This document shows positions 13,197 to 57,976 of a stretch of 60,245 nucleotides of DNA, piece after piece. The notes under the pieces are model-generated. The model saw nothing but the letters and a program-made list of their open reading frames with translations, had not been told where the DNA came from and did no database searches. The stretch spans positions 1 through 60,245 of the forward strand of contig JBBDKX010000038.1 of assembly GCA_040879145.1 (NCBI GenBank), in the 5' to 3' direction. The stretch is from Candidatus Spechtbacterales bacterium. Its GTDB lineage: Bacteria > Patescibacteriota > Minisyncoccia > Spechtbacterales > 2-12-FULL-38-22. The stretch's first letter is position 1, and every line of letters starts with the position of its first letter. The position numbers and the translations under genes were made by a program.

Positions 13197-13329
13197 CACT
13201 GCGGAAGTTTTCCACAGTTTATCCTATTGACCAGATGTGTCTCGTACGGGATAATAAGTGTAGTACATTGAAAGATTGCATCTGTCTGACAGAATAAGTT
13301 GATTAAATACACATACTGTTTCGCGGGGC

Positions 13330-13555
13330 CAATCATAGCCGGCAGACGGATATAATCTTATAGGATGTAGACTCTTACATCCTTAGATTGCAATCCCTTA
13401 AGAGGGTGTTTATAAGATTCTCTCTTAAGGGATTGCAATCCCGGCTCTCAGGGCGTGTTAGACACCCTCTAAGTAACTTAGATCTTCGGGGTAACATCAC
13501 ACATCCTGAGAGCCACCCACCTTAACTTTTCAAGTCGCTTTATTGCGGCTTTTTC
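13330..13555. ncRNA. Unassigned highly structured non-coding segment (candidate ncRNA or regulatory leader)
   Basis: It contains an 8-bp hairpin at 13362-13383 and a 19-bp perfect stem (13386-13404 with 13422-13440). A 10-bp helix is formed by GGCTCTCAGG (13443-13452) and CCTGAGAGCC (13505-13514). An alternative pairing joins 13397-13409 to 13462-13473. A weak hairpin plus T-run lies at 13534-13554. There is no ORF of 60 aa or more on the sense strand. Confidence 0.3.
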
Positions 13556-13633
13556 AATACAATAAACGCACCCGACATATTGCGCCTTAAACTGATCTAA
13601 GTTACAATTATTTTAATACTGTAATTTATATTC

Positions 13634-15699: not shown

Positions 15700-15804
15700 A
15701 CCGCTGATCAATGCAGATGGGGCAGATAGAGTGCAGATATAAAAAACCGAGCTGTGCTCGGTTTTAATCTACATAAAATCCGCTTTATCCGCATATATTC
15801 GCGG
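15700..15804. repeat. 'Word' spacer (CCGC / GCAGAT words) whose arms flank a central terminator hairpin
   Basis: Read directly. Its right end, 15787-15804, is an inverted copy (15 of 18) of 3525-3542. Confidence 0.6.
15743..15765. terminator. Bidirectional intrinsic terminator between convergent comM and the M23 gene
   Basis: AAAACCGAGC TGT GCTCGGTTTT forms a 10-bp stem with A/T runs on both sides. Confidence 0.7.
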
Positions 15805-17010
15805 TTAATATGCCAGATAGTTCCTTGCTCCATGCACTTCCCAGTGCAAATGAGATCCGGTAGAGCGCCCCGTAGAGCCCATATACCCTATAACTTGACC
15901 CTTGGTAACGGATTGGCCTGAAGCAACAGCTGTTTGTATCATGTGCGCATACAAAGTTCGCGTTCCGTTGTAATGATTAATGGTTACATAATTTCCAAAA
16001 CCTCCGTTCCAGCGTCCATTACCAATAGAAATGCCTACGGTACCACTTGCGGCCGCATATATTGGCGTCCACCGAGGTGCGGCTATGTCCACAGCATTGG
16101 TACCGTGAAGCCACTGACTTATGCGCCCCACACCGTTTGTAGGATGCGCGAAATATCCATCTATATTTTGAAGTGAAGAGGCATATCTTGGAGCGCGAGC
16201 CGAAGGTGCGGTACGAGCCGGAGCGGGTTTGGTTCCTCCTGGAATAATAATAGTTTGACCGGCAAATATATGAGTCTCGTTCTCTATTCCATTGGTTTCG
16301 AGTATGTCTGCAATTTCTGCTTTATGGTTTCTTGCGATAACCGAAAGGGTGTCTCCGCTCTTTATCTCATAAAGCACGCCGTCCGTTGGCAAAATACTTA
16401 ATACTTCCCCAGGTTGTATATAATTGGAATCTCTAAAGTGATTGCTCCAAAGCAGTGTCTCCAGCTTTAATCCAAATGAGCGTGCTATCCCGTTTGCCGT
16501 ATCTCCCGGCTTTACGGTGTATTCTGTTATTTCATTGCGTTGCTGAGGGGGTGTATCAGCTATTACCGGTGAGTTGTTTGAAAGTAGTGAACTGCCCTGA
16601 TTTGTAGGAAAGGTTGTATCAAAAGCTCCACCGATAGCAACACTGTCTTCATCTTTAGAAGATACAGCATTAGCGGAATTTAGTAATTTAGCACTTATAA
16701 AAGGTTGTACGCCTGCAAAGTTAGCTTTCTGCGCGTCTTTATCTATAACAACCTCTTCCTGCGCGGATGTGTGTAAAGAAACAAGACCATTAAGCTCTTT
16801 AGTATTAAACATGCTAATTAAGCCGGCTACAAAAATAAAAATAGCGACACCTCTCAAGTAATACAAAAAAATGGAGGAGCCGCCTCTTTTAAAAACCTTT
16901 GCTATAATCATGCGTTTATAGCGCTGTATGTCATCCCTCTTCGCATCCCAAAAATGAGACGAAGAAGAAGGGTCTTGTGGGTTGTTTTGGATAGGATTAT
17001 AGTACCTCAT
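15805..17010 (-). CDS. LysM-domain M23 family metallopeptidase
   Basis: It has an N-terminal TM and two LysM repeats (YTVKPGDTANGIARSF; YEIKSGDTLSVIARNH). The C-terminal M23 motifs are VDIAAP...GNYVTINH...LYAHM and GSTGRSTGSHLHWEV. Confidence 0.85.
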   Translation of the reverse strand: MRYYNPIQNNPQDPSSSSHFWDAKRDDIQRYKRMIIAKVFKRGGSSIFLYYLRGVAIFIFVAGLISMFNTKELNGLVSLHTSAQEEVVIDKDAQKANFAGVQPFISAKLLNSANAVSSKDEDSVAIGGAFDTTFPTNQGSSLLSNNSPVIADTPPQQRNEITEYTVKPGDTANGIARSFGLKLETLLWSNHFRDSNYIQPGEVLSILPTDGVLYEIKSGDTLSVIARNHKAEIADILETNGIENETHIFAGQTIIIPGGTKPAPARTAPSARAPRYASSLQNIDGYFAHPTNGVGRISQWLHGTNAVDIAAPRWTPIYAAASGTVGISIGNGRWNGGFGNYVTINHYNGTRTLYAHMIQTAVASGQSVTKGQVIGYMGSTGRSTGSHLHWEVHGARNYLAY

Positions 17011-19068: not shown

Positions 19069-20001
19069 ATGATACAGAGTATGGGACATGAAACAATTAA
19101 AAAACTGCTTGAGAAATACAATGTAGAGCCGAACAAGGTCCTGGGTCAAAATTTTTTAAATGAGCCGAATGCGGTTCATGCCCTTATTAAAACGGCGGAG
19201 GTGTCGAAAGAAGACACAGTTATTGAGGTTGGTCCCGGAACCGGAGCTATAACAAAAGAGCTGGCGAAAAAAGCGGGTCAGGTTATTGCGGTGGAAAAAG
19301 ACGAGAATATGGTAGAAATTCTTAAACATGAGATAAGGGGATTTGAAAACATACAGATAGTGGAGGGTGATATTTTGAAATTTGAAATAACCAAGATACA
19401 AGAAACCCAGCCCGACATCGCGAGACGAAGTCGAGGCGGGCAGGCAAGAAACAAACAAATCTCAAATCACAATAACCAAGCAAAGGAAAACCCAAAAGGC
19501 TACGATCTAAAGCTTGATACCTACAAGCTGGTTGGCGCTCCTCCTTATTATTTAACGGCGCGCTTATTTAGGACCTTTTTAGAACAGGCTAATCTAAAAC
19601 CTGTTTCAATTACTGTTATTATCCAAAAAGAAGTTGCGGAAAAAATATGTGCAAAGCCACCCCGAATGAACCTTCTTGCTGTCTCCGTGCAACTGTATGG
19701 GGAGGCTAAAATTATAGAAAAGGTTCCGAAAGAGTTTTTTTGGCCTCGCCCAAAAGTGGACTCAGCTATTTTGACTGTACAAAATATCAAAAAACCTGGT
19801 GTTGATGAAACTAAATTCTTTAAAGTACTGCAAGCGGGTTTTTCTGCTCCAAGGAAACAGCTTGCGGGAAATCTTTCACGCGTCCTAAGTATTGAACGTG
19901 ATAAAGTAGAAAAAATACTTAAAGAGTGTGGCATAAAGCCCGAACAACGCGCCGAAACGTTAAGCGTTGATGACTGGAAAAAATTAACACTTAAGTTTTA
20001 A
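19069..20001 (+). CDS. rsmA: 16S rRNA (adenine1518/1519-N6)-dimethyltransferase with an internal ~35-40 aa insertion
   Basis: It has VLGQNFL, the SAM motif EVGPGTGAIT and VEGDILKF. The usual GNLPYxIS motif is replaced by VGAPPYYLT. An extra segment QETQPDIARRSRGGQARNKQISNHNNQAKENPKGYDLKLD lies between them. Confidence 0.85.
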   Translation: MIQSMGHETIKKLLEKYNVEPNKVLGQNFLNEPNAVHALIKTAEVSKEDTVIEVGPGTGAITKELAKKAGQVIAVEKDENMVEILKHEIRGFENIQIVEGDILKFEITKIQETQPDIARRSRGGQARNKQISNHNNQAKENPKGYDLKLDTYKLVGAPPYYLTARLFRTFLEQANLKPVSITVIIQKEVAEKICAKPPRMNLLAVSVQLYGEAKIIEKVPKEFFWPRPKVDSAILTVQNIKKPGVDETKFFKVLQAGFSAPRKQLAGNLSRVLSIERDKVEKILKECGIKPEQRAETLSVDDWKKLTLKF

Positions 20002-20085
20002 TGTTCCGTGTTTTGTGTTTTGTGTTTTATGACCATAAGTTATACACAAACACAAACCCTTTAAAGTACTGTATAATAGTAAGTA
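20002..20085. repeat. Heptamer-word hairpin spacer (GTGTTTT x3 facing ACACAAAC ACAAAC)
   Basis: GTGTTTT repeats tandemly at 20008-20028, with complementary ACACAAACACAAAC at 20044-20057. It starts directly after the rsmA stop. Confidence 0.7.
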
Positions 20086-22045: not shown

Positions 22046-22570
22046 ATGAAAATAGAATACGCAACATATATTTCTACTAAAAATAAGGCACCTGAAAAAA
22101 TTCTCGAGCTAATAGATTCGGGGGGTGTTGGGAATATTCTTGGTATAATTTATTCAAGGTACGGAATTACAAACCAGAAAATATCCTGTACACAGATTGT
22201 TGGCCACGTACTTGTTGGTCTTATTCCTATAAAACGTTTTATTCAGGCGCTTCAAGAAGATGCGGGTCTTGATGAAAGCACCGCGAAAAACATTGCGCAT
22301 GACGTGCGTGCGGAAATTTTTGCTCCCGTAGCCAGGGAGTTGGCAGCCATGCAGGAGCAGGCGATAAAAAACTGGCAGGAATTACATGCTTCGCAAGAAA
22401 CAAGCAATCCTCAAAATACAAACTTTGAACAAGAGAATGAGAAACTACCGACACCTGACGAAGGTGTTGTAAGAGAAGTTTTTCCGGCACCTGAGGTAAA
22501 CGAAAAAAAATTTGATGACGGTTTGGAAAAATCCCAAAACAAAGAGGAGGAGAAAGATGAAAGATTCTAA
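22046..22570 (+). CDS. Hypothetical protein (T4SS-like locus)
   Basis: The ATG at 22046 (MKIEYATY) lies 1 nt after the upstream stop. It has an acidic C-terminus and no recognisable motif. Confidence 0.4.
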   Translation: MKIEYATYISTKNKAPEKILELIDSGGVGNILGIIYSRYGITNQKISCTQIVGHVLVGLIPIKRFIQALQEDAGLDESTAKNIAHDVRAEIFAPVARELAAMQEQAIKNWQELHASQETSNPQNTNFEQENEKLPTPDEGVVREVFPAPEVNEKKFDDGLEKSQNKEEEKDERF

Positions 22571-22744
22571 CTCAGACTTCGTCTTCGTAATTTCAAATTT
22601 TAAATTTCCAATTTTAAAACAATTTTAAATGACTGAATTCCTGCCTGCCGGTTTACATGCCGATTGGTATGCAGGCAGGTTAAAACATTGGAACATTAAG
22701 GCATTAAATTAAAATTTTAAATTTAAAATTAGAGCGTAGCGACT
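22571..22744. repeat. Composite spacer element: CTTCG words, AATTTNN heptamers, GC-rich hairpin, AT words, GAGCGTAGCGAC
   Basis: AATTTCA AATTTTA AATTTCC AATTTTA lie at 22589-22616. CCTGCCTGC (22640-22648) pairs with GCAGGCAGG (22671-22679). GACTTCGTCT at 22575-22584 also occurs, inverted, inside rsmA at 19423-19432. Confidence 0.65.
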
Positions 22745-23185
22745 ATGGCACAATATCCCGTACCACAATTTATAGACAGGGAAACAAGACTTGTAGGCCC
22801 GCTAACAGTTCGGCAGATGATAATATTCGGCATAGATGCCGCGGTTTTATTTGTGCTTTGGTTTGTTTTAAATAAAATTACATTTATTTTTGCCGCCATA
22901 GTACTCACAAGTGCCGCCATAATACTTGCGTTTATAAAGATAAACGGACAACCACTAACAACTATTGTATTCTCTCTTCTAAACTACTTTCTACAACCGA
23001 GGCTGTATTTATGGGGAAAACAAGAAGATGTTGTTCAAAAAAAACCGAAGGGCGGACTATTTGATAAAATAGTGGGAGCGGGAACAGAAAAAAAAACGGC
23101 ACAGTCTTACGAAGTGCCCGAAGAGGCATCCAAAGAGCCGAGTGTTAGTGAAATAAAAGACGTAGCGAAATTGCTCGATGAGTAA
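22745..23185 (+). CDS. PrgI/VirB3-like small T4SS membrane protein
   Basis: 146 aa. YPVPQFIDRETRLVGPLTVRQMIIFGIDAAVLFVLWFVL plus a second TM match the PrgI/TcpE-type pattern. It sits immediately upstream of VirB4. Confidence 0.5.
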   Translation: MAQYPVPQFIDRETRLVGPLTVRQMIIFGIDAAVLFVLWFVLNKITFIFAAIVLTSAAIILAFIKINGQPLTTIVFSLLNYFLQPRLYLWGKQEDVVQKKPKGGLFDKIVGAGTEKKTAQSYEVPEEASKEPSVSEIKDVAKLLDE

Positions 23186-23323
23186 GCTCGCTTCGCGAGC
23201 TTCAAGATTACGCTGATAATAGCTGATACCACAGATGAACAATAAAACCTAAAGAAGCCTGTTAAAATAATTAGTGTAATCAGTTATTATCTGTGAAATC
23301 TGAAATTTTTCAAAGAAAAATTT

Positions 23324-23974
23324 ATGCCTTCAACAGCAACAACACAAAGTTTTATACCAATAGACAACATCCGAAACGATGTCGTTGTTGTTAAGGGCGG
23401 AGAACTTAGAGCCATACTCCAGGTATCAAGTGTCAACTTTGCCCTAAAAAGCCATGACGAGCAGGAAGCTACCATATACCAATACCAAAACTTTCTTAAC
23501 TCTTTGGATTTTCCCATACAAATACTGGTAAACTCCCGCATGATGAATGTTGATGAGTATGTAGGAACAATACAGGCGATGGAAGCCAAGCAACGTTCCG
23601 ACCTTCTAAAAATGCAGACACAAGAATATGTAAAATTTATACAGCGTTTTGTGCAGGAGGCAAACATAGTCTCCACAGACTTTTATCTTATAGTGCCTTT
23701 CAGTTTAATAGACGTGGCAACAACACAGGGGGGAGCAAATGAAAGAATGAAAAGTCTTATAGGAAAACAAAGTCAACTGGGAACGATGGAGGCCGAAAAA
23801 TTCTTGTACTTCAAAGGACAGTTGATGCAGAGGGTAGACTTTGTTGCGAGTGGTCTTCATAGAATGGGTATATCTGCAAGCATGATGACAACGGAGGAGT
23901 TGGTTTCTCTTTTTTGGAGTATATATAACGGGGGAGACCTCAGAAAACGCGGTGCGATAAAACCAATGTTTTAA
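23324..23974 (+). CDS. VirB4/TrbE N-terminal domain encoded as a separate ORF
   Basis: 216 aa. IPIDNIRNDVVVVKGGELRAILQVSSVNFALKSHDEQEATIYQYQNFLNSLDFPIQILV resembles the CagE/TrbE/VirB4 N-terminal region. It ends with its own TAA stop. Confidence 0.5.
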   Translation: MPSTATTQSFIPIDNIRNDVVVVKGGELRAILQVSSVNFALKSHDEQEATIYQYQNFLNSLDFPIQILVNSRMMNVDEYVGTIQAMEAKQRSDLLKMQTQEYVKFIQRFVQEANIVSTDFYLIVPFSLIDVATTQGGANERMKSLIGKQSQLGTMEAEKFLYFKGQLMQRVDFVASGLHRMGISASMMTTEELVSLFWSIYNGGDLRKRGAIKPMF

Positions 23975-24399
23975 AACAGCTTTTAGCTTCTGGCTTTCAG
24001 CTTATTAGCTTATGATAAATTCTTATAAAGAACTAAAGGTTTGGCAACGCGCAATGGAATTAGTTGTTGCTGTATATGAACTAACCGAAAAATACGCAAA
24101 AGAAGAAACTTATGGATTAACGGCACAAACAAGAAGATCGGTAATTTCTATACCTTCAAATATAGCTGAAGGTAGGCACAGGTCCACAAGAAAAGATTTT
24201 ATAAACTTTTTGATAATAGCTTATGCATCTGGCGCAGAATTAGAAACACAAATAGAAATAGCAAAACGATTACCAAAAACCAAACAATTAAACTATGTAA
24301 AAGTTGATAATCTTTTGGAAGAAGTTATGAAAATGTTAAACATAATGATAAAAAAGTTAAAAGCTAGTAGCTAATAGCTATAAGCTATAAGCTAAACAC
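23975..24399 (+). mobile_element. IVS-like cassette: four-helix-bundle gene flanked by mutually complementary NNAGCTT heptamer arrays
   Basis: The left array is at 23977-24011 and the right array at 24361-24399. The reverse complement of the right array aligns with the left at roughly three quarters of positions by hand. The cassette sits exactly between the two VirB4 pieces. Confidence 0.4.
24012..24374 (+). CDS. Four-helix-bundle protein of the 23S rRNA intervening-sequence protein family
   Basis: 120 aa. YKELKVWQRAMELVVAVYELT, LTAQTRRSVISIPSNIAEGRHRSTRKDFINFLIIAYASGAELETQIEIA is the family pattern as I recall it. Confidence 0.8.
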   Translation: MINSYKELKVWQRAMELVVAVYELTEKYAKEETYGLTAQTRRSVISIPSNIAEGRHRSTRKDFINFLIIAYASGAELETQIEIAKRLPKTKQLNYVKVDNLLEEVMKMLNIMIKKLKASS

Positions 24400-26229
24400 A
24401 TGCCTGAAAACCCACTAAGTGACCAACAACCGAATAACCAACCTCAAAAGGGTCCTCAACCCTTCCAGCAGGCGTACCAGGTGGTGCAGCAGTCTGAACA
24501 AGTGGACAAGCGCAAGCGACTTCTTGATATAATAGCTCCGCCCGCACTTGAGGTTACAGCAAACAATGTAAAGTTGGGGAATACATTCGTCCGTACTCTT
24601 TTTGCTTTCTCTTACCCCAGATATCTGGCAGAAAACTGGTTAAGTCCTATTATAAACATAGATAGAACAGTAGATGTTTCTATATTTATAGAGCCGGCTG
24701 ATACAGCTACCATTATGAAACAGCTTCAAAACCAGTTAACCAGTGTTGAGGCGGAAATGATGGAAAGAGAAGAAAAAGGCCTTGTGCGCGACCCGCTGCT
24801 TGAAGCGGCTTATGAGAACATTGAAGATTTGCGGGACAAAATGCAGACATCCGAAGAAAAAATGTTCAAGTTTGGGCTCTATATTATAATCTACGCAAAA
24901 AGCGAGAAGGAGGTAAACGAGATAGAAAATGAGCTTCGCTCTATTTTAGAAAGCCGTCTTGTATATGTAAAACCGGCCGTGTATCAGCAAAGAGAGGGTT
25001 TTAACTCCGGCCTACCGCTGGGGCTTAATTATCTTAACCTGACAAACAGCATGAACACTTCGCCCCTATCTTCCACCTTTCCTTTTGTTTCGTTTGACCT
25101 AACAATGGATGAGGGAATTCTTTATGGAATAAACCGGCACAATTCAAGTCTTATTCTGTTTGACAGGTTCTCTCTTGAGAACGCCAACACTGTAATACTC
25201 GGAAAATCAGGCGGAGGTAAGAGTTACACCGTAAAACTGGAGGTGCTCCGCTCTATGATGTTTGGAGTGGACGTTATAGTAATAGACCCCGAAAACGAGT
25301 ACCAATACTTGGCAGAAACCACGGGCGGAAGTTTTTTCCGTGTATCTTTAACCAGCGGAGACGAGATAAACCCCTTTGATCTGCGGGAGCCCCAGGAGGA
25401 TGAAAAACCTGAAGAGCTTTTTCGCGCAAACATAATAACCCTTATCGGGCTTTTAAAGATAATGTTGGGAGACATGACGCCGGAAGAAGAGAGTGTTTTA
25501 AACGAGGCTATAATCCAAACATATGACTCGCGTGATATATCTCCGGAAACACCCAGATATTGGGAAAAAACACCACCGTTAATGCAGGACCTGCAAACCG
25601 TACTGCAAAATATGGAGGGAGGCGCAAGTTTAGCGCAACGCCTTCTTAAATACACGGATGGCGTATACTCAGGATTTTTAAATAAGCAAACAAATGTAAG
25701 CCTTGAAGGACAGCTTGTTGTGTTTAATATTCGGGATATGGAAGATGAACTTCGTCCCGTAGCTATGTACCTTATAATTAACTATGTATGGAATGCTATA
25801 AGGCGCACACTAAAGAAAAGAATGCTCGTAATTGACGAGGCGTGGTGGATGCTTCAACATCATGAAAGCGCGGCATTTCTTTTTGGTATCGCCAAAAGAG
25901 CAAGAAAATACTACCTCGGGGTTACAACAATAACCCAGGACATAGAAGACTTTTCTACGAGCGACTATGGAAGAGCGATTATCACAAACTCATCCCTGCA
26001 GATATTAATGAAACAGTCTCCGGCAACAATAGACCAACTCCAAAGAATATTTAACCTTACAGATGAAGAAAAATATCTTCTATTAGAAGATAATGTAGGG
26101 GAAGGACTTTTCTTTGCGGGAACAAAACATGTCGCAATAAAAGTTATAGCCTCTTACATAGAAGACCAGATAATAACTTCGGATCCCGAACAACTCTTAC
26201 AAATAGAAGAGTCTAAGGATCGGTTATAA
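24400..26229 (+). CDS. virB4: VirB4-type T4SS ATPase (central and C-terminal part)
   Basis: 609 aa. It has IAPPALEV...RTLFAFSYPRYL, Walker A ILGKSGGGKSYT, Walker B RMLVIDEAWWML and the downstream motif GVTTITQDIEDF. Confidence 0.85.
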   Translation: MPENPLSDQQPNNQPQKGPQPFQQAYQVVQQSEQVDKRKRLLDIIAPPALEVTANNVKLGNTFVRTLFAFSYPRYLAENWLSPIINIDRTVDVSIFIEPADTATIMKQLQNQLTSVEAEMMEREEKGLVRDPLLEAAYENIEDLRDKMQTSEEKMFKFGLYIIIYAKSEKEVNEIENELRSILESRLVYVKPAVYQQREGFNSGLPLGLNYLNLTNSMNTSPLSSTFPFVSFDLTMDEGILYGINRHNSSLILFDRFSLENANTVILGKSGGGKSYTVKLEVLRSMMFGVDVIVIDPENEYQYLAETTGGSFFRVSLTSGDEINPFDLREPQEDEKPEELFRANIITLIGLLKIMLGDMTPEEESVLNEAIIQTYDSRDISPETPRYWEKTPPLMQDLQTVLQNMEGGASLAQRLLKYTDGVYSGFLNKQTNVSLEGQLVVFNIRDMEDELRPVAMYLIINYVWNAIRRTLKKRMLVIDEAWWMLQHHESAAFLFGIAKRARKYYLGVTTITQDIEDFSTSDYGRAIITNSSLQILMKQSPATIDQLQRIFNLTDEEKYLLLEDNVGEGLFFAGTKHVAIKVIASYIEDQIITSDPEQLLQIEESKDRL

Positions 26230-34187: not shown

Positions 34188-34640
34188 TTATACCGAACGC
34201 ACAACAACTTTTCTGTAAGGATGCTCCCCAACACTCTCTGTTTCAACATCGTCAAAATCAGCAAGTGTTGTGTGAATAATTCTCCTGTCAAACCCGTTCA
34301 TAGGCTCCATTTCTAAAAGGTTTTCACCATCCAAAACCCTTCTTCGTGCGGTTAGAGCAAACTCTTTTAAAAACTCTGCCCTTCTTTGTTTGTATCCATT
34401 TACATCTAAGTCTACTTGTACTTCAGGTCCGTATTTTTTATTCACCACCATTCTAAACAGAGATTGTACATCGCGCAGATTGGCGCCCCGTTCTCCTATA
34501 AACGCACGGGGTTCATCTACAAAAACATGCACCAGAAACCTTTCGTCTGTTCTTTTAACTTCCGGATCGTGCAACAAATTGAATGTCATTTTGTCCACGA
34601 ACTCTTTTATGTCTTTTTTCAATTGTGCCTCTGTACTCAT
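34188..34640 (-). CDS. jag: Jag/KhpB-type KH plus R3H RNA-binding protein
   Basis: It has the R3H motif region MNGFDRRIIHTTLADFDDVETESVG. The start is set at the ATG at 34638-34640 (MSTEAQLKKD); the 77-codon upstream extension in the track runs through repeat DNA. Confidence 0.8.
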   Translation of the reverse strand: MSTEAQLKKDIKEFVDKMTFNLLHDPEVKRTDERFLVHVFVDEPRAFIGERGANLRDVQSLFRMVVNKKYGPEVQVDLDVNGYKQRRAEFLKEFALTARRRVLDGENLLEMEPMNGFDRRIIHTTLADFDDVETESVGEHPYRKVVVRSV

Positions 34641-34902
34641 AGTTTTATTTCGGCTCCGCCTTATAAAAAGTATAAAGTATAGAGTATTCAGTATACAGGG
34701 GTGCTTTGTAATTAGCTTTGCTGAATACTCTATACTATATACTATATACTTGAACGAGCGTGCCTGCCTGCCGCGATAGCGCAGCCTGCCTGAGCGAGGA
34801 CGCTCGCAGACAGGCGGCGCAGGTAGGAAGCGCGAGTTCCAAGCGAGCCCCGTTAGAGACTGCGAGGGCACGTAGCGTGCCTACGACTCTAACGGGGCGA
34901 GT
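34641..34902. repeat. Composite spacer: AT-rich TACTMTA heptamer hairpin plus ~150-nt GC-rich GCGAG/GCCTGCC word block with nested hairpins
   Basis: A 16-bp perfect inverted repeat joins AGTATAGAGTATTCAG (34676-34691) and CTGAATACTCTATACT (34721-34736). CCCCGTTAGAG pairs with CTCTAACGGGG around GGCAC-GTAGC-GTGCC (about 34848-34898). CGCAGACAGGC (34805-34815) recurs at 59962-59972. Confidence 0.7.
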
Positions 34903-35655
34903 TTATCCTACACTCTTGTTAATAACATACTGCTGTCCGATTGAAAAGAGGGTCGTAACAAACCAATACAGCGCCAATCCTGCCGGAAAACTTTGTGCTA
35001 TAAATATAGTAACGAACGGTAAAACATAAGTCATTTGTTTACCCATCATGTTTTGAAAGTCAGGCGCACCGCTTTTTTTGCTCTTAGTTCTAACAGGAAG
35101 TCCTGTTTTATCTTTTTGAGCAAGCGTAAGTTTGCTTAACACAAACTGCGCAAAACCTGCTAAAATTCCGAATACCAAGGAAAGGGGGCCTATCTCTGTA
35201 ATAACACCTATGTTAAAAAAACTCGCATTTATGTTATCTGAAACAGTTACAAAAGGGTAAATTAAGCCCTGCAGTGCATCTCCTCCTCTAAGCTCTACCA
35301 GAAATACTCTATACATACCTATTATAACTGGTATTTGAATAATAAACGGCAAACATCCGGCAAAGGGGTTTATACCCTTCTCTTTATACAAAGCCATTAC
35401 AGCCATAGACTGTTTTTGTTTATCGTCTTTATTTTCTTTTTGTATTTTTTTTATTTCAGGCTGAAGTTTTGTAAGCTCTCTTTGAGATTTTAAAGCTTTA
35501 TACGATAACGGGTACAAGAAAAGACGAATAATAATTGTTACTAATATTATTCCTATCCACAGATCGTTACCCGGAATAAAATCAACAATAACCAACAAAA
35601 AATTTAATATTGGTTTAAATATTGTTTCGTTAAAAATTGTAATAATAAAGTTCAT
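34903..35655 (-). CDS. yidC: Membrane protein insertase YidC (short form)
   Basis: It has LYPLSYKALKSQRELTKLQPEIKKIQ and MALYKEKGINPFAGCLPFIIQIPVIIGMY. The ATG at 35655 is preferred; the track start at 35676 is a GTG. Confidence 0.9.
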   Translation of the reverse strand: MNFIITIFNETIFKPILNFLLVIVDFIPGNDLWIGIILVTIIIRLFLYPLSYKALKSQRELTKLQPEIKKIQKENKDDKQKQSMAVMALYKEKGINPFAGCLPFIIQIPVIIGMYRVFLVELRGGDALQGLIYPFVTVSDNINASFFNIGVITEIGPLSLVFGILAGFAQFVLSKLTLAQKDKTGLPVRTKSKKSGAPDFQNMMGKQMTYVLPFVTIFIAQSFPAGLALYWFVTTLFSIGQQYVINKSVG

Positions 35656-35755
35656 AGTTTTGTTCACTTCGTTCACAAAAAGGTTCTAGGTACTAGGAGT
35701 TAGGTGTTAGTCTAATACCTAAAAGCTAAAACCTAATACCTGCGAGTGAAGCGAG
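35656..35755. repeat. Heptamer-word hairpin spacer (AGGNNNT x4 facing TAAWANC x4) ending in GCGAGTGAAGCGAG against the yidD stop
   Basis: AGGTTCT AGGTACT AGGAGTT AGGTGTT lie at 35681-35708. TAATACC TAAAAGC TAAAACC TAATACC lie at 35713-35740. The arms are complementary at about 21 of 29 positions by hand. Confidence 0.75.
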
Positions 35756-36028
35756 CTAATAGCATTTTTTAATTTGCCTAAAACCAACAACCAAGCCTTT
35801 TGCGGCGCCCAGTCTTTTTACAGCGTTCTTTGTATACTCAGAACAGGTGGGCCTGTGCTTACAGACGCCCGTGTTATACATGCTAAAAATTCCGTGGTCC
35901 GGAGAGAGTGTCCACTGATATACTGTAATCAACACAACAACCAAAAAACCGGGTATTTTGCCCAGTTTGCTTAAAAAAATAGGTTGGTCTTTAGTTGTTA
36001 ATAATGCCTGTTTTGCGAAATAGTTCAT
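35756..36028 (-). CDS. yidD: Membrane protein insertion efficiency factor YidD
   Basis: CKHRPTCSEYTKNAVKRLGAAKGLVVGFRQIKKC is the YidD signature. The ATG at 36028 is preferred (the track start is a TTG). It overlaps the rnpA 3' end. Confidence 0.8.
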   Translation of the reverse strand: MNYFAKQALLTTKDQPIFLSKLGKIPGFLVVVLITVYQWTLSPDHGIFSMYNTGVCKHRPTCSEYTKNAVKRLGAAKGLVVGFRQIKKCY

Positions 36029-36505: not shown

Positions 36506-36620
36506 AAATTAAAATTATTATTTAAAATGATTTATAAACCCGTTCCAACTTATACCTATGATACTTTACCAGTATTTTTGTTACATTTCAAGCTTTATTC
36601 TTCTTTTTTATACGTTATTC

Positions 36621-36662
36621 TTATCCACACCTATTCCACAGCTTCCACACAATTTTCCCCAC
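36621..36662 (+). promoter_or_regulatory. DnaA-box cluster upstream of dnaA (oriC / dnaA promoter region)
   Basis: TTATCCACA (36621-36629) is a perfect box. TATTCCACA (36632-36640), GCTTCCACA (36641-36649) and TTCCCCACA (36654-36662) follow in the same orientation. Confidence 0.7.
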
Positions 36663-36784
36663 AAATCAAGACTTTACTTTATCAACCTTGTTTAGGTATC
36701 ATTAGTATAACTTAAAAAATATTATAACAACTTTCATCTCCTGTGGAATTTTATAGCTTATTTCACACGGGGCTTGGGAACCTT

Positions 36785-38143: not shown

Positions 38144-38183
38144 ACCAAAAAGAATAAGTTGTTGAATACTATGTATACAGTAG

Positions 38184-38335
38184 TGTGGAAAACTGTGGAT
38201 AAAAAGTATTTTTAAAACATCTATTTTTAAAAATACTTTTTATCCCCCACAAATCCACAAGACAACGTTCCTGTTTCCCACCCTTTTTACTCTCCTAATT
38301 TGTTTAGTTTAAAGAGTAAAACAACTGTTTCCACA
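38184..38335. promoter_or_regulatory. Second DnaA-box cluster with AT-rich palindrome between dnaA and dnaN (candidate oriC core)
   Basis: The boxes are TGTGGAAAA (38184-38192), TGTGGATAA (38194-38202, perfect), TTATCCCCC (38240-38248), AAATCCACA (38251-38259) and GTTTCCACA (38327-38335). A 16-bp perfect AT-only inverted repeat joins 38202-38217 and 38225-38240. Confidence 0.65.
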
Positions 38336-47898: not shown

Positions 47899-47920
47899 AT
47901 TTTAGATAATCTGATAATAT
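47892..47920 (+). promoter_or_regulatory. Consensus-like promoter TTGACA-17-TAATAT reading away from ruvB into the 47980-48154 element
   Basis: TTGACA is at 47892-47897, overlapping the ruvB start codon on the other strand. A 17-nt spacer and TAATAT at 47915-47920 follow. Confidence 0.4.
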
Positions 47921-47979
47921 AGTGTATCTGTAGTAGTTTACTAATAAAATAAAAAACCTACCTTTAGTAATTGTACCAG

Positions 47980-48154
47980 AAAACACCCTAAAAATGTAGG
48001 CATTCACTCGTCCCGATTGTTTGATCGGGATAAGGGATATTTCTCAGTTAATGGATGGCCCGGCTGCATGGCTGGTCCATTCCTCAGATGTATTCCATAT
48101 TATAGGTTCCCAAGCCAAGATTTGTGGTGAATGCCTACATTTTCAGGGTGTTTT
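47980..48154 (+). ncRNA. Candidate small RNA or MITE: 28-position closing stem around a 119-nt structured interior, followed by T-runs
   Basis: AAAACACCCTAAAAATGTAGGCATTCAC (47980-48007) pairs with GTGAATGCCTACATTTTCAGGGTGTTTT (48127-48154) with 1 mismatch. An inner hairpin TCCCGAT-TGTTTG-ATCGGGA lies at 48011-48030. TTTTTGTTTTTG follows the stem. Confidence 0.35.
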
Positions 48155-48168
48155 TGTTTTTGCGATTT

Positions 48169-49833
48169 TTACAATGTACCCAGAACCCTTTCAACCTCTT
48201 TGTAAGAAGTTGTGCCCTCTAATATTCTTATAACTGCATCTTGTTTTAAATTTGTCATTCCCTCCTCTTTGGCCAATTGCCGTATTTCTTCTTCGGAAGG
48301 GTTTTCCATTATTTTTTCCTTTATCTTTTTTGTTGCAACTACTATTTCAACAATAGCTATTCTGCCTTTATATCCTGTGTGTCTGCACTCTACGCATCCG
48401 CCTGGTGACGGGGTGTGTATGGTCGCGTCGGGTGTTAAGGGAGAGTGAGGAATTTTTTCCGGTAAATCTTTTAATATTTTTTGAAATAGCTCATATTCTT
48501 CATCTGTTATGGTTTTCCCTTGCTTACATTCACCACATAGCCTTCTTACAAGTCGTTGTGCAACAGAAGCAGAAAGTGCAGAGGCAATGGTAGACGGGTC
48601 GCCACCAAGGTCTGTTAAACGCGGAGCAGTTCCCGCTGCGTCTATTGTGTGTAAAGTACTCATGACAAGTCTTCCTGCCAGAGCCGCCTGCATCGCAGCA
48701 TCGGCTGATTCAAGGGTCCTTAGCTCGCTTAAGAGCACAATGTCAGGGTCTTGCCGTAAAATAGCACGCAGACCGGTTTCAAAAGTGTACTCCTTATGTG
48801 GGTTTACCTGTGTCTGAGTTATTCCGGGAAGATGATACTCTATAGGGTCTTCTATTGTAATTACTTTTAACTCTCTCTCTTGTAAAAAACGCAAACCTGC
48901 ATACAGGGTGGTTGTCTTACCGGAACCTGTTGCTCCTGTGATGAGCAGAAAACCCTGGGGTTGTTGTAACTGATTTTTTAATTCTTTTTCTAAATCAGGG
49001 CGTAATCCAAGTTCTGAGAGGGATAATAAAAATTTAGGGTCTAAAACTCTTAAGGCAATATCTTCATTGTATTCACTTGGAATTATTGATATTCTGGCTT
49101 CTATTTCTCTTTCTTCAAATAGTATTGAGAACCTTCCTTCCTGGGGTTCGTCATGAACATTTAGTTTTAAGCTGGAAAGAAGCTTAATGCGCGAAAGGAT
49201 TAATTTGTATAAGTGCTCGTTTATTGTCGCTACCTCGTACAGCATTCCATCTATTTTAAGCCGGATGTCTGTTTTTCCACGCTGGGGTTCTATGTGTATA
49301 TCTGTTGCATCAAAAGCAAGAGCCGCGCTTATTAAGACCTCAAACGCATGAGACGCGTTTATATCTTCTATGTCGCTTAGAAGGATATTAATGTCGTTTA
49401 TCTCTTTTAGTTTGCTTTTAAATCTTTCAAGTGTGCTTGGGTCTATACTTACAGATCCGGTTATGTCTGCCGCTTTCCCGGATGTGTTTTTTGGGTATTT
49501 CTCCCAAACCTCTTCAAGGCTACTGTGTGACACAACAACAAGACTTATATTGCGATAAGTTTTTTTAAGTTCATCGAGCGCCTCTTTTGTTTTGGGGTCT
49601 TTGGGATCCTGAAGAGCAACTTTTATAGACTCTCCCTTTTTATAAATTATAGCAATATTTGCTTCACGAGCTTTTTCTTCTTTAAACAGCATCATGGCCT
49701 CCTCTTGTATCGGTGTCATAGAAAGATTAGCATAAGTCATTCTGTAAGCCTCCGCCCTTTGTTGGGCGACTCTCTCCTCATCTTCTCTCTGAATGTTGTT
49801 TAAATTGTTTTTAGGGTAGAGCTCATCAGACAT
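48169..49833 (-). CDS. pilB: GspE/PilB-family type II/IV secretion or type IV pilus assembly ATPase
   Basis: It has Walker A GATGSGKTTTLYA, ITIEDPIEY, DPDIVLLSELR and the tetracysteine region CGEC...CVECRHTGYKGRIAI. Confidence 0.85.
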   Translation of the reverse strand: MSDELYPKNNLNNIQREDEERVAQQRAEAYRMTYANLSMTPIQEEAMMLFKEEKAREANIAIIYKKGESIKVALQDPKDPKTKEALDELKKTYRNISLVVVSHSSLEEVWEKYPKNTSGKAADITGSVSIDPSTLERFKSKLKEINDINILLSDIEDINASHAFEVLISAALAFDATDIHIEPQRGKTDIRLKIDGMLYEVATINEHLYKLILSRIKLLSSLKLNVHDEPQEGRFSILFEEREIEARISIIPSEYNEDIALRVLDPKFLLSLSELGLRPDLEKELKNQLQQPQGFLLITGATGSGKTTTLYAGLRFLQERELKVITIEDPIEYHLPGITQTQVNPHKEYTFETGLRAILRQDPDIVLLSELRTLESADAAMQAALAGRLVMSTLHTIDAAGTAPRLTDLGGDPSTIASALSASVAQRLVRRLCGECKQGKTITDEEYELFQKILKDLPEKIPHSPLTPDATIHTPSPGGCVECRHTGYKGRIAIVEIVVATKKIKEKIMENPSEEEIRQLAKEEGMTNLKQDAVIRILEGTTSYKEVERVLGTL

Positions 49834-57942: not shown

Positions 57943-57976
57943 TGAGTTTTTGCCCCACTTTTGGGTTGGGTTAAAG

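Follow-up and report, generated by a model that had tools for sequence, protein, structure and literature searches.

Results

The yidD-yidC spacer is filled by a gene-less hairpin

In the window, by which we mean the whole 60,245-nt stretch of DNA analysed, the genes yidD and yidC are separated by a spacer of 100 nt that is filled by a gene-less hairpin with heptamer arms (element F, 35656-35755, transcribed on the minus strand). The true start of yidC is at 35655 (protein P0001); the ORF calls for both jag and yidC are over-extended in the window. The left arm of F (35683-35710) consists of four units, GTTCTAG, GTACTAG, GAGTTAG and GTGTTAG, the right arm (35715-35742) of four more, ATACCTA, AAAGCTA, AAACCTA and ATACCTG, and an outer stem is formed by the pairing of about 35662-35676 with 35743-35756. 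A first-pass annotation had described the words and the 7-nt construction of this spacer as we read them, with arms complementary at about 21 of 29 positions; this agrees with the values that we computed (18/24 in the best register, and 17/25 when the register is moved by 7). Folding of the spacer (35655-35765), a check proposed in that annotation, gave an imperfect hairpin with a z of about -4 (-33.5 kcal/mol and z -4.1 for the minus strand; -37.7 kcal/mol and z -4.6 for the plus strand).

Compared with the 100 nt found in the window, the yidD-yidC spacer measures 21, 9 and 1 nt in relatives with 83%, 68% and 59% YidC identity, respectively. The neighbouring yidC-jag spacer, about 262-266 nt long in the window, has 11, 11 and 68 nt in the same three relatives. 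No period-7 array was found in the relatives when up to 20 kb of syntenic DNA was searched, and the element sites are empty in their loci (L081-L085). Conservation of position in relatives, which the first-pass annotation had made a test of its proposal, was thus not observed in the nearest ones; the empty sites mean that the spacers are insertions and they do not refute the family itself. The sequence comparison indicates that F is a lineage-specific insertion.

As no further copy of any element was found inside the window with blastn-short, multi-copy status was taken from Logan contigs. The assembly depth rises from a baseline of 60-80 to about 3700 over F, and contigs with other flanks join the element at 35658 and 35757. 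Separate contigs of genome-like depth (70-79) contain 60-85 nt of F, with about 88-92% identity and, again, other flanks.

Period-7 arrays are in excess and intergenic

In a lag-match scan of the whole window (cut-off of at least 16/21 matches), period 7 gave 10 clusters, while the other periods from 4 to 15 gave 0-5 each. The expectation from local shuffles for period 7 was 0.43 clusters, with a shuffle maximum of 3. Tandem Repeats Finder placed period-7 arrays at 6-38, 20008-20028, 22589-22618, 22709-22730, 24358-24395, 34667-34695, 34725-34750, 35712-41 and 59979-60011. Every period-7 array lies within intergenic DNA, which makes up 8.3% of the window. Thus, both the comparison of period 7 with other periods and the check for intergenic enrichment that had been suggested came out positive when run on the window, and the claim that the spacers are not random low-complexity DNA holds. 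An additional cluster of the lag-match scan at 58658-58688 is AT-rich and weak, and is probably a chance occurrence.

Sites B, C, D, E and F, which are described individually below, are inverted array pairs with co-oriented neighbouring genes; they begin 0-27 nt past a stop codon and finish 0-20 nt short of a start codon. The heptamer words found in the window include TTAGGNN, AGTATAN, AATTTNA and GTGTTTT, and none of them contains a G3 tract. Some arrays, in the window as well as in the metagenome loci, have a 14-nt super-period. An element family with a common 7-nt period, as proposed earlier, was borne out by the scan and by the multi-copy data, while two parts of the proposal had to be amended. 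Several words do occur, but not every site has its own, since TTAGCTT/AAGCTAA (23977/24361) and TTAGGNN/NNCCTAA with one GCTAAAA unit (35683/35715) form one word family. Furthermore, the listed sites are not all one construction: C, D, E, F and, in part, H are dispersed and multi-copy, but 1-38 and 20008-20057 are single-copy, local arrays.

A search of the whole window against Rfam at gathering thresholds returned tRNAs only, and two other structured spacers had no credible match when scanned against Rfam by E-value. The window contains no rRNA, no transposase or reverse transcriptase gene and no rnc gene, and no direct repeat or target-site duplication was evident at the ends of the elements.

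Other gene-less hairpins and local arrays

Element E (34663-34762, minus strand) is a gene-less hairpin with AGTATA/TATACT heptamer arms in the yidC-jag spacer. Either strand of 34640-34770 folds with a z of about -4 and forms a stem of about 22 bp. Depth rises from about 70 to about 1000 over E, and the junctions are located at 34665 and 34760-62. Two GC-rich hairpins follow in the same spacer (34763-34902, minus strand), one of the (CCTG)n/(CAGG)n type and the other reading CGCCCCGTTAGAG...CTCTAACGGGGCG; this region is missing from relatives L081 and L082. The fold of the entire yidC-jag spacer reaches -113.8 kcal/mol (z -8.4).

Element C (22588-22731, plus strand), a 144-bp hairpin with AATTTNN/NNAAATT arms upstream of a prgI-like gene, folds less markedly (22565-22750, z -1.9). 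A second full copy, which shows 6 differences and a deletion of 20 nt, is present in a 3905-nt contig of matching depth (75.9), and it extends exactly from 22588 to 22731. The loop of C holds a nested GC-rich palindrome, CCTGCCTGCC...GCAGGCAGG (22640-22681, not assigned to a strand), which is a separate high-copy element with a depth of 1240-1960 (as compared with about 75) and loose ends at 22640 and 22681. Its motif is also found inside the 3' end of a gene for an IVP, the protein described in the next section, at locus L189.

The spacer between prgI and a traC-like gene contains a degenerate hairpin (23186-23323, plus strand; GCTGATA.. facing ..TATCTG), which is preceded by a GCTCGCTTCGCGAGC mini-hairpin beginning directly past the stop codon. 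It folds with -40.1 kcal/mol (z -5.6), has a depth of about 140 (as compared with 75), and is joined by other copies at 23206. Where the window has this degenerate hairpin, the prgI-traC spacer of locus L190 holds an IVP cassette.

Site B (20008-20062, plus strand), with (GTGTTTT)3 facing ACAAAC ACAAAC, is a local single-copy heptamer hairpin; its fold is weak (19995-20075, z -1.4), its depth is flat (71.5), and no other copies were found. Site A (1-41, minus strand) is a single-copy (CTGTTWT)n array with a 14-nt super-period, 100% matches and a flat depth of 76.9. It had been listed as a hairpin (1-38), but only one arm is visible, because the start of the window cuts the array, and it has no fold on its own. 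Site H (59932-60014, minus strand), upstream of rpsT (identified with Pfam), is composed of a high-copy GC-rich palindrome (59932-59970, depth 570-920) and an A-rich heptamer-like array (59971-60011, depth about 190-230), closed by an outer stem, TTCGCTTCGCC...GAGCGAA. Its fold (59930-60030) has z values of -1.2 and -2.1 on the two strands.

One cassette carries a PF05635 gene

Element D differs from F, E and C, which have no ORF, in that its loop contains a gene. The 5' arm (23975-24011, plus strand), made of five NNAGCTT/TTAGCTT units, extends from the upstream stop codon to the start codon of this gene (24012-24374, plus strand), which encodes a 120-aa PF05635 '23S rRNA intervening sequence protein' (IVP or S23p), alias four-helix-bundle protein (TIGR02436). 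The assignment is based on matches to Pfam PF05635 (E 8e-36), TIGR02436 (E 2e-35) and XCC0516 (PDB 2GSC, E 4e-22). The 3' arm (24355-24399, plus strand), with five AAGCTAN units, overlaps the stop codon of the IVP gene and ends 0-5 nt before the start codon of a virB4/traG-like gene. The first-pass annotation had listed the two arms at 23977-24011 and 24361-24399; the gene between them, which it overlooked, is the informative part.

The two arms form a duplex of -33.6 kcal/mol (z -8.5), and in the minimum-free-energy fold they are paired with each other, enclosing the 120-aa gene. When flank complementarity was computed for 56 genes of the window, the IVP gene was the top outlier (z -7.5). The gene itself is single-copy (depth 65.6), while depth is raised over the arms (181 vs 75 for the 5' arm and 255 vs 66 for the 3' arm). 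When inverted arrays separated by 150-2500 nt were searched for other small cargo genes, they were seen to enclose, beyond the IVP gene, only ordinary genes between neighbouring spacers.

The word family in metagenomes

The 20-mer ACCTAAAAGCTAAAACCTAA from the right arm of F is present in 103 metagenome stretches. Matches to eukaryote-type telomere repeats, (CCCTAAA)n, were excluded (L118, L131, L135, L142, L178 and L181), as were two loci dominated by CCTAAA-like runs (L187 and L103). Most matches are TTAG(C/G)NN/NN(C/G)CTAA hairpins ending just 5' of start codons. The 20-mer is never within a long ORF, and in about 35/85 cases no more than 35 nt separate its end from a downstream start codon. 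A phased TTAG array was found within 130 nt of the 20-mer in 33/78 cases, as compared with 12/475 random positions, and the 20-mer loci contain 284 period-7 arrays, as compared with 4-26 for other periods. In many of the metagenome copies complementarity is limited to the TTAG/CTAA core of each unit, and the C/G position does not show clean covariation between the arms. An exact protein look-up, made for 10 of the 20-mer metagenome contigs, gave a taxon name for one of them (Patescibacteria), and the hosts seen so far for the TTAGS word are Patescibacteria and two cyanobacterial plasmids.

Heptamer arrays bracket IVP genes in other bacteria

IVP homologues chosen by protein similarity alone, at four operon sites (rny/ymdB, prgI/traC, mraZ/rsmH and x/prgI), were bracketed by TTAGCT/AGCTAA in 4/4 cases. 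The same bracket is found at the IVP loci L094 and L134, and at L094 the exact 20-mer of F is part of the 3' arm. The lag-7 detector (15-16/21 matches) misses the degenerate cassette arms of L189, L190 and L194, where the spacing alternates between 7 and 8 nt, and these three brackets rest on the sequence itself and on duplex energy. Duplex energies of the sense and the antisense strand, compared in order to tell selection on the RNA from selection on the DNA, showed no consistent difference.

The IVP gene of Xanthomonas, Stenotrophomonas and Dokdonella is located between accB and accC and is bracketed by GGGAATC/CATTCCC arrays; the Xanthomonas gene, XCC0516, sits inside one inverted GGGAATC array pair. 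Inverted heptamer arrays bracket the IVP gene at about 10/12 loci of cyanobacterial plasmids, and on a Calothrix plasmid these are TTAGCTG/AAGCTAA arrays. The analogy with cyanobacterial STRR, which had been drawn in the first-pass annotation, is therefore apt. At two IVP loci of Nostoc 7120 an array is present on one side only, and the Gemmatirosa locus has direct 8-mers, not inverted 7-mers. The word differs between IVP lineages, being TTAGCT in Patescibacteria, GGGAATC in Xanthomonadales and GACAGAT in Coxiella. We found in the literature no earlier tie of bacterial heptamer repeats to a protein family such as PF05635; a heptamer-bracketed IVP gene had been noted once, in the 23S rRNA IVS of Coxiella (PMC4990558).

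Discussion

Relation to known elements

The spacers described here are IVS-type or STRR-type elements inside operons. F and the IVS cassette, in which the loop of a heptamer stem holds a PF05635 gene, are elements of one kind. Of the cassettes in the window, that at 23975-24399 is loaded, whereas F, E, C and 23186-23323 are empty.

The elements resemble Correia/NEMIS of Neisseria, other MITEs and REP-type palindromes, which are likewise small (about 100-150 bp), multi-copy, intergenic, palindromic and co-transcribed. As is typical of MITEs, they measure 100-144 bp, are multi-copy, have inverted ends and are missing at the orthologous sites of relatives. Correia hairpins are substrates of RNase III, and some IS elements target REP loops, a behaviour that the palindrome nested in the loop of C recalls. 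Nevertheless, Correia and MITE elements have unique terminal inverted repeats, whereas the window elements have arms of tandem 7-nt words. Furthermore, no target-site duplication, cognate transposase or RAYT was found in the window, and the only related loaded form carries IVP, a four-helix bundle that is not a known enzyme.

STRR of heterocystous cyanobacteria are tandem intergenic heptamers with many copies and few word families, as are F, E, C and the arms of D. Their canonical words (CCCCAGT, TTGGTCA and CAACAGT) differ from those of the window, and their hosts are cyanobacteria rather than a Patescibacterium near Spechtbacterales. Vioque (1997, title as cited in PMC2858038) is reported to have described STRR also inside the RNase P RNA gene.

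The 23S rRNA IVS with an S23p/IVP ORF, known from Leptospira, Coxiella and Brucella, resembles D in that a PF05635 gene lies in the loop of an inverted-repeat stem; terminal inverted repeats forming a long stem are also seen in F, E and C. In the Coxiella IVS, the 28-bp terminal stem (4 x 7) contains tandem GACAGAT heptamers, which, as in D, are found directly upstream of the ATG of the ORF; strains differ in how many of them they have, and the cleavage site of RNase III is at the first one (PMC4990558). The 23S IVS are inserted in helix 25 or 45 of 23S rRNA, whereas the window elements lie between protein-coding genes of operons, are in most copies gene-less and use TTAGCT and other words rather than GACAGAT.

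The construction, for which the first-pass annotation named no described equivalent in CPR-like genomes, is not new in kind, since besides the Coxiella IVS it has been described in Xanthomonas and Nostoc as inverted heptamer array pairs between co-oriented genes, hugging stop and start codons (Rehm et al. 2015; PMC4692102). There, as here, the arrays (GGGAATC in Xanthomonas, GGGGAYT in Nostoc) consist of 7-nt units, usually about 4 per array. Inverted pairs occur as well, with 70 close convergent two-array cases among the 186 arrays of Xcc. Most of the Xanthomonas arrays separate co-oriented ORFs, are found right at a stop codon or <50 bp from a start codon, and are transcribed (PMC4692102). 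They differ by being G-rich and having been read as G-quadruplexes, while the window words are AT-rich, and by the presence of one dominant word in the Xanthomonas genome, as opposed to several coexisting words in the window. No link to PF05635 was made in that paper.

Heptamer arrays just upstream of start codons are also known from hmw of H. influenzae (PMC12721329) and, in the form of TAACTGA repeats, from Beggiatoaceae, cyanobacteria and Bacteroidetes (PMC4679880). In hmw, the (ATCTTTC)n array forms one arm of a long 5'-UTR hairpin that is cut by RNase III, the other arm being a non-repeat G-rich stretch. Transcription, hairpin and RNase III are all required for the repeat number to change at this single phase-variable locus (PMC12721329). 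The TAACTGA sets are almost exclusively direct (169 direct vs 1 inverted; PMC4679880), whereas sites B-F of the window are inverted pairs.

A probable gene-less IVS-type insertion

Our best explanation, which we hold to be probable, is that F is a gene-less, IVS-type palindromic insertion in an operon, with arms that pair into a stem, removal by RNase III and drift in the number of units. In the first step, which is seen in the window itself, the element is inserted directly past the upstream stop codon, and only a few bases separate its end from the start codon that follows; this placement implies co-transcription with essential operons. The arms are then predicted to pair into a long imperfect stem, thereby reuniting the flanking cistrons. 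By analogy with the Coxiella S23p IVS and with H. influenzae hmw, RNase III would cut this stem, so that the insert would be removed or split out at little cost for the host; excision by RNase III has been demonstrated for the Coxiella IVS, and for the window elements, which we know from their sequence, such processing is put forward by comparison. Finally, slippage would cause the number of heptamer units to drift, perhaps in a manner dependent on transcription and on RNase III. The basis for this last step is provided by the Coxiella strains, by H. influenzae and, in the present material, by a 7-nt deletion variant at 22618 in one contig.

Candidate routes for the spread of the elements are recombination between arrays that share a word and assistance by the IVP protein. 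Words, architecture and context suggest that the gene-less hairpins derive from IVP cassettes. Alternatively, the IVP gene could insert preferentially into the loops of pre-existing hairpins, and the GC-rich palindrome nested in C indicates that such loops do attract insertions.

Other readings of the arrays

Among the alternatives, a possible though not a leading one is that the arrays are binding sites of a nucleic-acid-binding protein that is multimeric or forms a ring, with one heptamer per subunit, and that would regulate downstream translation or mRNA stability; a pentameric PF05635/IVP protein or a cold-shock-type protein could be considered, and such a function would not conflict with an origin of the elements by insertion. 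The number of units (usually 4-5 per arm) and the end of the arrays 0-15 nt before start codons are consistent with this proposal. In XCC0516 (PDB 2GSC), four-helix bundles are assembled into a homopentamer (as cited in PMC4990558). IVP has a distant relative in Avd, a DGR protein that binds nucleic acids (weak match, NCBIfam NF033474), and each molecule of B. subtilis CspB takes up a single heptamer (as cited in PMC4679880). The differences in word between IVP lineages (TTAGCT, GGGAATC and GACAGAT) point in the same direction, although the match between word and protein lineage could reflect mere common ancestry, as does the maintenance of the IVP gene at accB/accC across several genera of Xanthomonadales. 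However, one genome contains several unrelated words (AGTATA, AATTTNA and TTAGS), which a single protein would hardly be able to read, and S23p is apparently not made in vivo in Coxiella (PMC4990558).

A broader proposal, which we consider tentative, makes PF05635 the trans-acting partner of heptamer repeats. The IVP cassette would be the 'autonomous' form, and STRR, the GGGAATC repeats and the Patescibacteria spacers would be its gene-less derivatives, with word and protein co-evolving and with RNA-mediated, RNase III-dependent spread and change in copy number. If each subunit of a pentameric IVP ring contacted one 7-nt unit, the period of 7 and the usual 4-5 units per arm would both be accounted for.

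It is unlikely, in our opinion, that the arrays are plain simple-sequence repeats, produced by preferential 7-nt slippage of the polymerase in unconstrained DNA, with hairpins that are incidental or due to local inverted duplication and with no link to a gene. Heptanucleotide repeats are reportedly the commonest long simple-sequence repeat class in prokaryotes (as cited in PMC4679880), for which an explanation based on the polymerase footprint has been cited (PMC4679880, PMC4692102). Simple local slippage fits the single-copy sites A (1-41) and B (20008-20062); the deletion variant at 22618 would be another product of it, and the 14-nt super-periods suggest duplication of two-unit blocks. What it does not account for is that F, E, C and the arms of D occur in multiple copies with other flanks, that an identical 20-mer recurs across the metagenome stretches, and that the spacers of the closest relatives are short and array-free over 20 kb. 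Moreover, all the independent IVP sites that we examined in Patescibacteria and Xanthomonadales, and most of those in cyanobacteria, are array-bracketed, and inversion of the repeat tract in H. influenzae abolishes the change in repeat number, which led the authors to argue against simple DNA slippage (PMC12721329).

We also rejected the view, which appears very improbable, that the hairpins are intrinsic transcription terminators or attenuators. Stable stems past stop codons would be expected of terminators, and a clear terminator with a U-tract is indeed contained in a related repeat-armed hairpin at 15690-15810, but this one lies between convergent genes. F, E, C and D have no U-run after the stem and are located within tight co-oriented operons (rnpA-yidD-yidC-jag; T4SS-like), with spacers of 1-21 nt in relatives, where termination would silence the downstream genes.

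Guide-RNA-type arrays (CRISPR-like or TIGR-Tas) or G-quadruplex elements have next to no likelihood: TIGR arrays, whose repeats are not conserved, occur commonly in Patescibacteria, but they have 36-nt units, with 8-12-nt repeats, 9-nt spacers and an adjoining Nop-domain gene, as opposed to dispersed 7-nt units (3-5 per arm) and no Nop-domain (Tas) gene in the window, and the interpretation of the Xanthomonas and Nostoc arrays as G4-forming (PMC4692102) cannot be extended to AT-rich words without G3 tracts, so that G4 formation is not the property common to the arrays across phyla.

Significance

These findings join three separate puzzles: the abundance of heptamers in bacteria, the nature of STRR and GGGAATC repeats, and the role of the very widespread PF05635 protein together with the origin of IVS. 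In Patescibacteria, Xanthomonadales, cyanobacteria and Coxiella, a PF05635 gene is found in the loop of a stem built from the heptamer words of its own genome, and gene-less copies of such stems populate intra-operon spacers. They also call for caution in annotation. IVP genes in cas, acc, mraZ and T4SS operons are probably insertions and not functional partners, and the hairpins break short-read assemblies and inflate ORF calls, as for jag and yidC here. The questions about heptamers and PF05635 are now open to ordinary experiments. For the compact genomes of Patescibacteria, the results mean that a noticeable part of the scarce intergenic DNA would be recent insertions, selfish or regulatory, in essential operons such as rnpA-yidD-yidC-jag.

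Heptamer hairpins between genes of the window

Spacer 35656-35755 (element F) is exactly the gap from the yidD stop to the true yidC start at 35655, which is set by a database protein of 250 aa (P0001). The first-pass annotation had read this spacer as an imperfect hairpin of 7-nt words, and the reading was borne out: four 7-nt units are opposed to four complementary units across a 4-nt loop. The arms are complementary at 18/24 positions in one register and at 17/25 when slipped by one unit, and outer GC-rich segments lengthen the stem. Heptamer hairpins can inflate ORF predictions: among mechanical ORF calls, 'yidC' (34903-35676) reached a GTG at 35676, the real ATG being at 35655, and 'jag' (34188-34871) ran to 34871, the real start lying near 34640 as judged by relatives and the R3H domain.

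Tandem Repeats Finder, run on the window, returned 11 period-7 rows out of 55. We also performed a lag scan, counting scan windows with at least 16/21 matches at a given lag and dropping anything explained by a shorter period. This gave 10 clusters at lag 7 and 0-5 at each other lag from 4 to 15, while composition-preserving local shuffles gave a mean of 0.43 lag-7 clusters (maximum 3), in agreement with the earlier view that the arrays are not random low complexity. All lag-7 clusters lay outside genes, bar a few terminal codons.

On the transcribed strand, F was predicted to fold with -33.5 kcal/mol (z -4.1). Element E (34663-34762, folded as 34640-34770) gave a z of about -4, and the whole 266-nt yidC-jag spacer -113.8 kcal/mol (z -8.4). 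Weaker folds (z -1.2 to -2.1) were obtained for element C (22588-22731), site B (20008-20062) and site H (59932-60014, upstream of rpsT). In the minimum-energy fold of element D (23975-24399), arrays 23977-24011 and 24361-24399 pair mutually across a 120-aa gene, the arm duplex amounting to -33.6 kcal/mol (z -8.5). Sense and antisense pairing were compared as a sign of RNA-level selection, and both strands paired equally well.

The elements are multi-copy and recently inserted

Logan contigs from two sediment-metagenome runs containing the window were aligned to it for depth. The baseline was flat at 60-80 and jumped at the elements, to about 1000 over E (34662-34769), up to about 3700 over the right arm of F (35711-35731), 1240-1960 over a palindrome nested in C (22632-22697), 180-255 over the D arms (23952-24017 and 24348-24413) and 570-920 over the GC palindrome of H (59932-59970). 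Contigs with unrelated flanks join F at 35658 and 35757, E at 34665 and 34760-62, and C at 22588 and 22731. Since Logan depth adds up contigs from every organism sampled, the number of copies in this one genome is a lower-confidence estimate, resting on contigs of matching depth: in several unrelated-flank contigs at the depth of the window genome (70-79), a 60-85-nt part of F is present with about 88-92% identity, and a 3905-nt contig (depth 75.9) includes C in full for a second time, with a 20-nt deletion and six differences. One contig carries a 7-nt deletion variant at 22618. No extra copies of the elements were found inside the window. Sites A (1-41) and B showed flat depth and no other copies; therefore the sites that the first-pass annotation had listed as a single family are heterogeneous, mixing dispersed elements with two local arrays, although its proposal of an element family of common origin was right in substance.

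The window comes from the chromosome of a Patescibacterium (candidate phyla radiation). The best match of its DnaA among species-representative genomes is a Candidatus Spechtbacteria genome (61% identity), and matches to its YidC and to its PF05635 protein ('23S rRNA intervening sequence protein', IVP) bear Spechtbacterales names. We compared the same operon from the nearest available relatives (YidC identity 83%, 68% and 59%). The yidD-yidC spacer is 100 nt in the window versus 21, 9 and 1 nt in these relatives, respectively, and the yidC-jag spacer about 262 nt versus 11, 11 and 68 nt. The coding ends align ('...AACAAGAAAGTAGGATAA AC' is common to the window and a relative); past this point the window has ~250 nt made of three hairpins, followed by '...AAAACT ATG'. 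No period-7 clusters were found in up to 20 kb of syntenic DNA of these relatives. Literally, then, the spacers are not conserved in position in any of them, an outcome that had been named as counting against the claim, but it points to recent insertion rather than to an artefact. The spacers contain discrete palindromic elements made up of 7-nt units, which are multi-copy and were inserted recently; they sit inside operons, after one stop codon and before the next start codon. They share their construction with the stems found around IVP genes.

Spread of the F word family in metagenomes

An exact 20-mer of the F right arm, ACCTAAAAGCTAAAACCTAA, was present in 103 stretches of a metagenome collection, in which a random 20-mer would occur, by a rough estimate, only a handful of times. 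Most loci read in context showed a left arm, a short loop and a right arm, as in F, with 3-9 units on the left (e.g. GTTAGCT, GTTAGGT, TTTTAGC) and 3-12 units of GCTAAAA or CCTAAAA on the right; in many copies, the TTAG/CTAA core is the only complementary part of each unit. Very often a start codon followed a few bases past the right arm, the downstream genes including dnaJ, gyrA, groEL, nusA, tuf and secF. The 20-mer lay inside a long ORF at 0/85 distinct loci, and a phased TTAG-type array was present at most 130 nt upstream at 33/78 loci, versus 12/475 random positions. A period scan of 693 kb of these loci gave 284 period-7 arrays versus 4-26 at other periods, with 72 at period 14 (twice 7), and the contigs hold arrays of many further words. 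For the TTAGS word, a taxonomic range could be established in Patescibacteria (from one named contig and the IVP loci) and on two cyanobacterial plasmids only. In dnaA loci of species-representative genomes, period-7 arrays occurred in a scattered subset of Patescibacteria-like contigs (one with 7 arrays, one with 5, several with 2, often as inverted pairs), and none was found in about 35 Bacillales dnaA loci.

Heptamer brackets around IVP genes

The 120-aa gene between the D arms (24012-24374) belongs to PF05635 (Pfam E 8e-36). Further matches are to TIGR02436 ('four helix bundle protein'), to XCC0516, a pentameric protein of Xanthomonas (PDB 2GSC, E 4e-22), and, weakly, to the DGR protein Avd. 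When 5' and 3' flanks of 56 window genes were compared for complementarity, this gene was a clear outlier (z -7.5; median -0.1). Homologues were chosen by protein similarity alone, more than 7900 of the 8000 candidates scored passing E<=1e-8. Sampled Patescibacterial IVP genes occupied four conserved-operon sites (rny|ymdB, prgI|traC-like, mraZ|rsmH and upstream of prgI). At all four, 3-4 units of (N)TTAGCT(N) begin right at the end of the upstream stop codon, and 3-4 AAGCTAA-type units overlap the IVP stop and end just short of the next ATG. The same TTAGCT/AAGCTAA bracket surrounds two more IVP genes, which a tblastn search of the metagenome loci located in L094 and L134, and the exact F 20-mer is present in the 3' arm of the L094 cassette. 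Flanks were complementary in 9/9 IVP cassettes tested (z -3.5 to -11.4). IVP identity is 65-77% across several Patescibacterial orders (Spechtbacterales, Wolfe-, Wildermuth- and Nomurabacteria; P0122-P0240), while YidC of the window's genome shows at most 59% identity outside its own genus-level group. Because IVP is more conserved than YidC across those orders, the sequences suggest that the cassette moves horizontally.

In Xanthomonas, Stenotrophomonas and Dokdonella, XCC0516 orthologues separate accB from accC and have GGGAATC units on their upstream side and CATTCCC/GATTCCC units on their downstream side. GGGAATC is the repeat whose abundance in Xanthomonas was described by Rehm et al., and gene-less pairs of this word occur in spacers neighbouring the IVP locus. 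These Xanthomonadales loci represent one ancestral insertion, not several.

Among 72,556 plasmids, IVP homologues were found in 30 records, 26 of them cyanobacterial. Inverted heptamer arrays surrounded the gene at about 10/12 cyanobacterial plasmid loci read, with words varying by lineage: TTAGCTG/AAGCTAA in Calothrix PCC 7716, GGCAGAA/TTCTGCC in Stanieria, GGGTGTA/TACACCC in Nostoc punctiforme and Calothrix brevissima, GGGAAAA/TTTTCCC in Geminocystis and GGAGATA/TATCTCC in Picosynechococcus. A Pseudanabaena plasmid (L216) has TTAGC words with long runs, (AAAGCTA)x17 and (AAAGCCA)x10, and an Anabaena sp. 90 plasmid (L223) has GGTGACA/TGTCACC with about 270 nt of (GGTGACA GGGAACA)n; in both, IVP lies between cas6 and cas4. 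The exceptions were two Nostoc 7120 loci with an array on one side only and a Gemmatirosa locus with direct 8-mers. An ISL3 transposase gene lies just upstream of IVP on the Nostoc 7120 gamma plasmid. Several cyanobacterial IVP genes have cas6 and cas4, or cmr2 and cmr3, as their neighbours on the two sides. The presence of IVP genes in cas operons was reported earlier (PMC3936711); those genes are probably insertions, as in the cyanobacterial loci, and CRISPR-Cas-'associated' IVP genes may be heptamer-flanked cassettes inserted into cas operons.

Other palindromes and features of the window

Small GC-rich palindromes with (CCTG)n/(CAGG)n arms, e.g. CCTGCCTGCCGG...GCAGGCAGG, form a second family (depth 570-1960 versus about 75). 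They are nested in the C loop (22640-22681), lie beside E (34763-34835) and H (59932-59970), and occur inside the 3' end of the IVP gene at L189, a locus of another Spechtbacterales genome (about 1850-1875). They behave like a very small mobile palindrome targeting hairpins, and their nesting in the C loop and in the L189 gene end shows that the element loops attract further insertions.

The 11-mer GCTCGCTTCGC occurs at 3615-3625 (-), 23186-23196 (+) and 35746-35756 (-, one mismatch), each time directly after a stop codon, in the orientation of the upstream gene, and is followed by a repeat-armed hairpin. Motifs related to it (GCGAAGCGAGC-like) are found ahead of start codons at 10700, 22731 and 60012. 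The 11-mer could be a terminal module common to several hairpin families; its count in the window, allowing up to 2 mismatches, was not above chance (9 versus 6.9 expected). Repeat-armed hairpins with other periods were seen at 3560-3602 (period 10, ATCCGCATTA x3.5) and at 15690-15810, a 120-nt hairpin between convergent genes (z -5 to -9) with GCAGAT/ATCYGC at 9-11-nt spacing around a canonical terminator. Two long non-coding stretches, 13200-13600 (400 nt) and 47900-48170 (270 nt), contain strong internal inverted repeats, such as GGGATTGCAATCCC... and CACCCTAAAAATGTAGGCATTCAC...GTGAATGCCTACATTTTCAGGGTG. Rfam gave no credible match for either, only a sub-threshold CRISPR-DR31 (13387-13440, E 0.012); the stretches could be structured RNAs that lack annotation, or additional palindromic elements. 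At its end (60177-60232), the window has a perfect palindrome, AACCTACTAGCAAAAAGACGGCCGTCTTTTTGCTAGTAGGTT, that resembles a terminator and is also multi-copy (depth 250-285 versus 80).

The window carries dnaA-dnaN, a divergent rnpA-yidD-yidC-jag operon, a type-IV-secretion-like operon (prgI-like, traC-like, virB4/traG-like, pilins), polA, pnp, ruvABC and other housekeeping genes, and only 8.3% of it is intergenic. DnaA-box-like motifs (TTATCCACA / TGTGGATAA) cluster on both sides of dnaA (36600-36700 and 38170-38270), two tandem copies (AGTTATCCACG AGTTATCCACA) lie at 57975-57995, and GC skew climbs steadily along the window. The clusters are probably the oriC region, and 57975 a separate DnaA-box pair. 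The tRNA region looks disturbed at 5185-5680 and 7204-7479. A GIY-YIG ORF (5255-5518), with tRNA-like fragments on either side, abuts tRNA-Arg (5509-5583), and ~150 nt upstream of the full tRNA-Lys (7406-7479) there is a 51-nt fragment similar to tRNA-Lys (7204-7254, Rfam 31.6 bits), with the first half of the full gene in common. This suggests insertion or duplication in or beside tRNA genes.

Discussion

Heptamer hairpins have precedents. Coxiella burnetii's 23S rRNA intervening sequence (IVS), which holds an S23p ORF, has a 28-bp terminal stem, with three tandem GACAGAT heptamers and a degenerate one directly before the ORF's ATG; strains vary between two and three units, and the IVS is excised in vitro by RNase III of Coxiella or E. 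coli, the 5' cut falling at the start of the first heptamer (PMC4990558). In the hmw 5'-UTR of H. influenzae, an (ATCTTTC)n tract is one arm of a long RNase III-cut hairpin, and changes in repeat number require transcription, the hairpin and RNase III, all three (PMC12721329). X. campestris has 186 GGGAATC arrays, with 70 cases of two close arrays in convergent orientation; they lie mostly between co-oriented ORFs, hug stop codons, are mostly transcribed and were interpreted as G-quadruplexes (Rehm et al., PMC4692102). According to citations in PMC4679880, no long simple-sequence repeats are commoner in prokaryotes than heptanucleotide ones, the reason put forward being that 7 nt is the length of DNA interacting with polymerase, which would favor slippage by that unit.

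The predicted folds of the elements are long, imperfect stems, of 22-28 bp in E and D, which would bring the flanking cistrons together. By analogy with Coxiella and H. influenzae, the stems may be cut by RNase III, so that the operon transcript would lose the insert, or have it split out, at little cost, and unit number may drift by slippage, itself possibly dependent on the transcribed hairpin. Spread could proceed by recombination between same-word arrays, with the IVP cassette landing in empty hairpins, or gene-less hairpins could arise by deletion of IVP from loaded cassettes; both options fit the data. No transposase, reverse transcriptase or RNase III gene was found within the window, and no target-site duplication was seen at the element ends.

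The 7-nt-word hairpin spacers first noticed in the window are thus confirmed, and their likeness to STRR, the heptamer repeats of heterocystous cyanobacteria, holds. The construction is not new in kind, given the Coxiella IVS heptamers and the convergent Xanthomonas arrays. In the literature searched, we found no paper that ties heptamer repeats in general to PF05635. Three points appear to be new: heptamer hairpin elements densely fill the operon spacers of a Patescibacterial genome; the gene-less hairpins and the PF05635 cassettes represent one element type in two forms; and in Patescibacteria, Xanthomonadales, cyanobacteria and Coxiella alike, PF05635 is paired with the heptamer word of its own host. 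There is a good chance that the function of both the heptamer repeats and the IVP proteins can thereby be put to the test.
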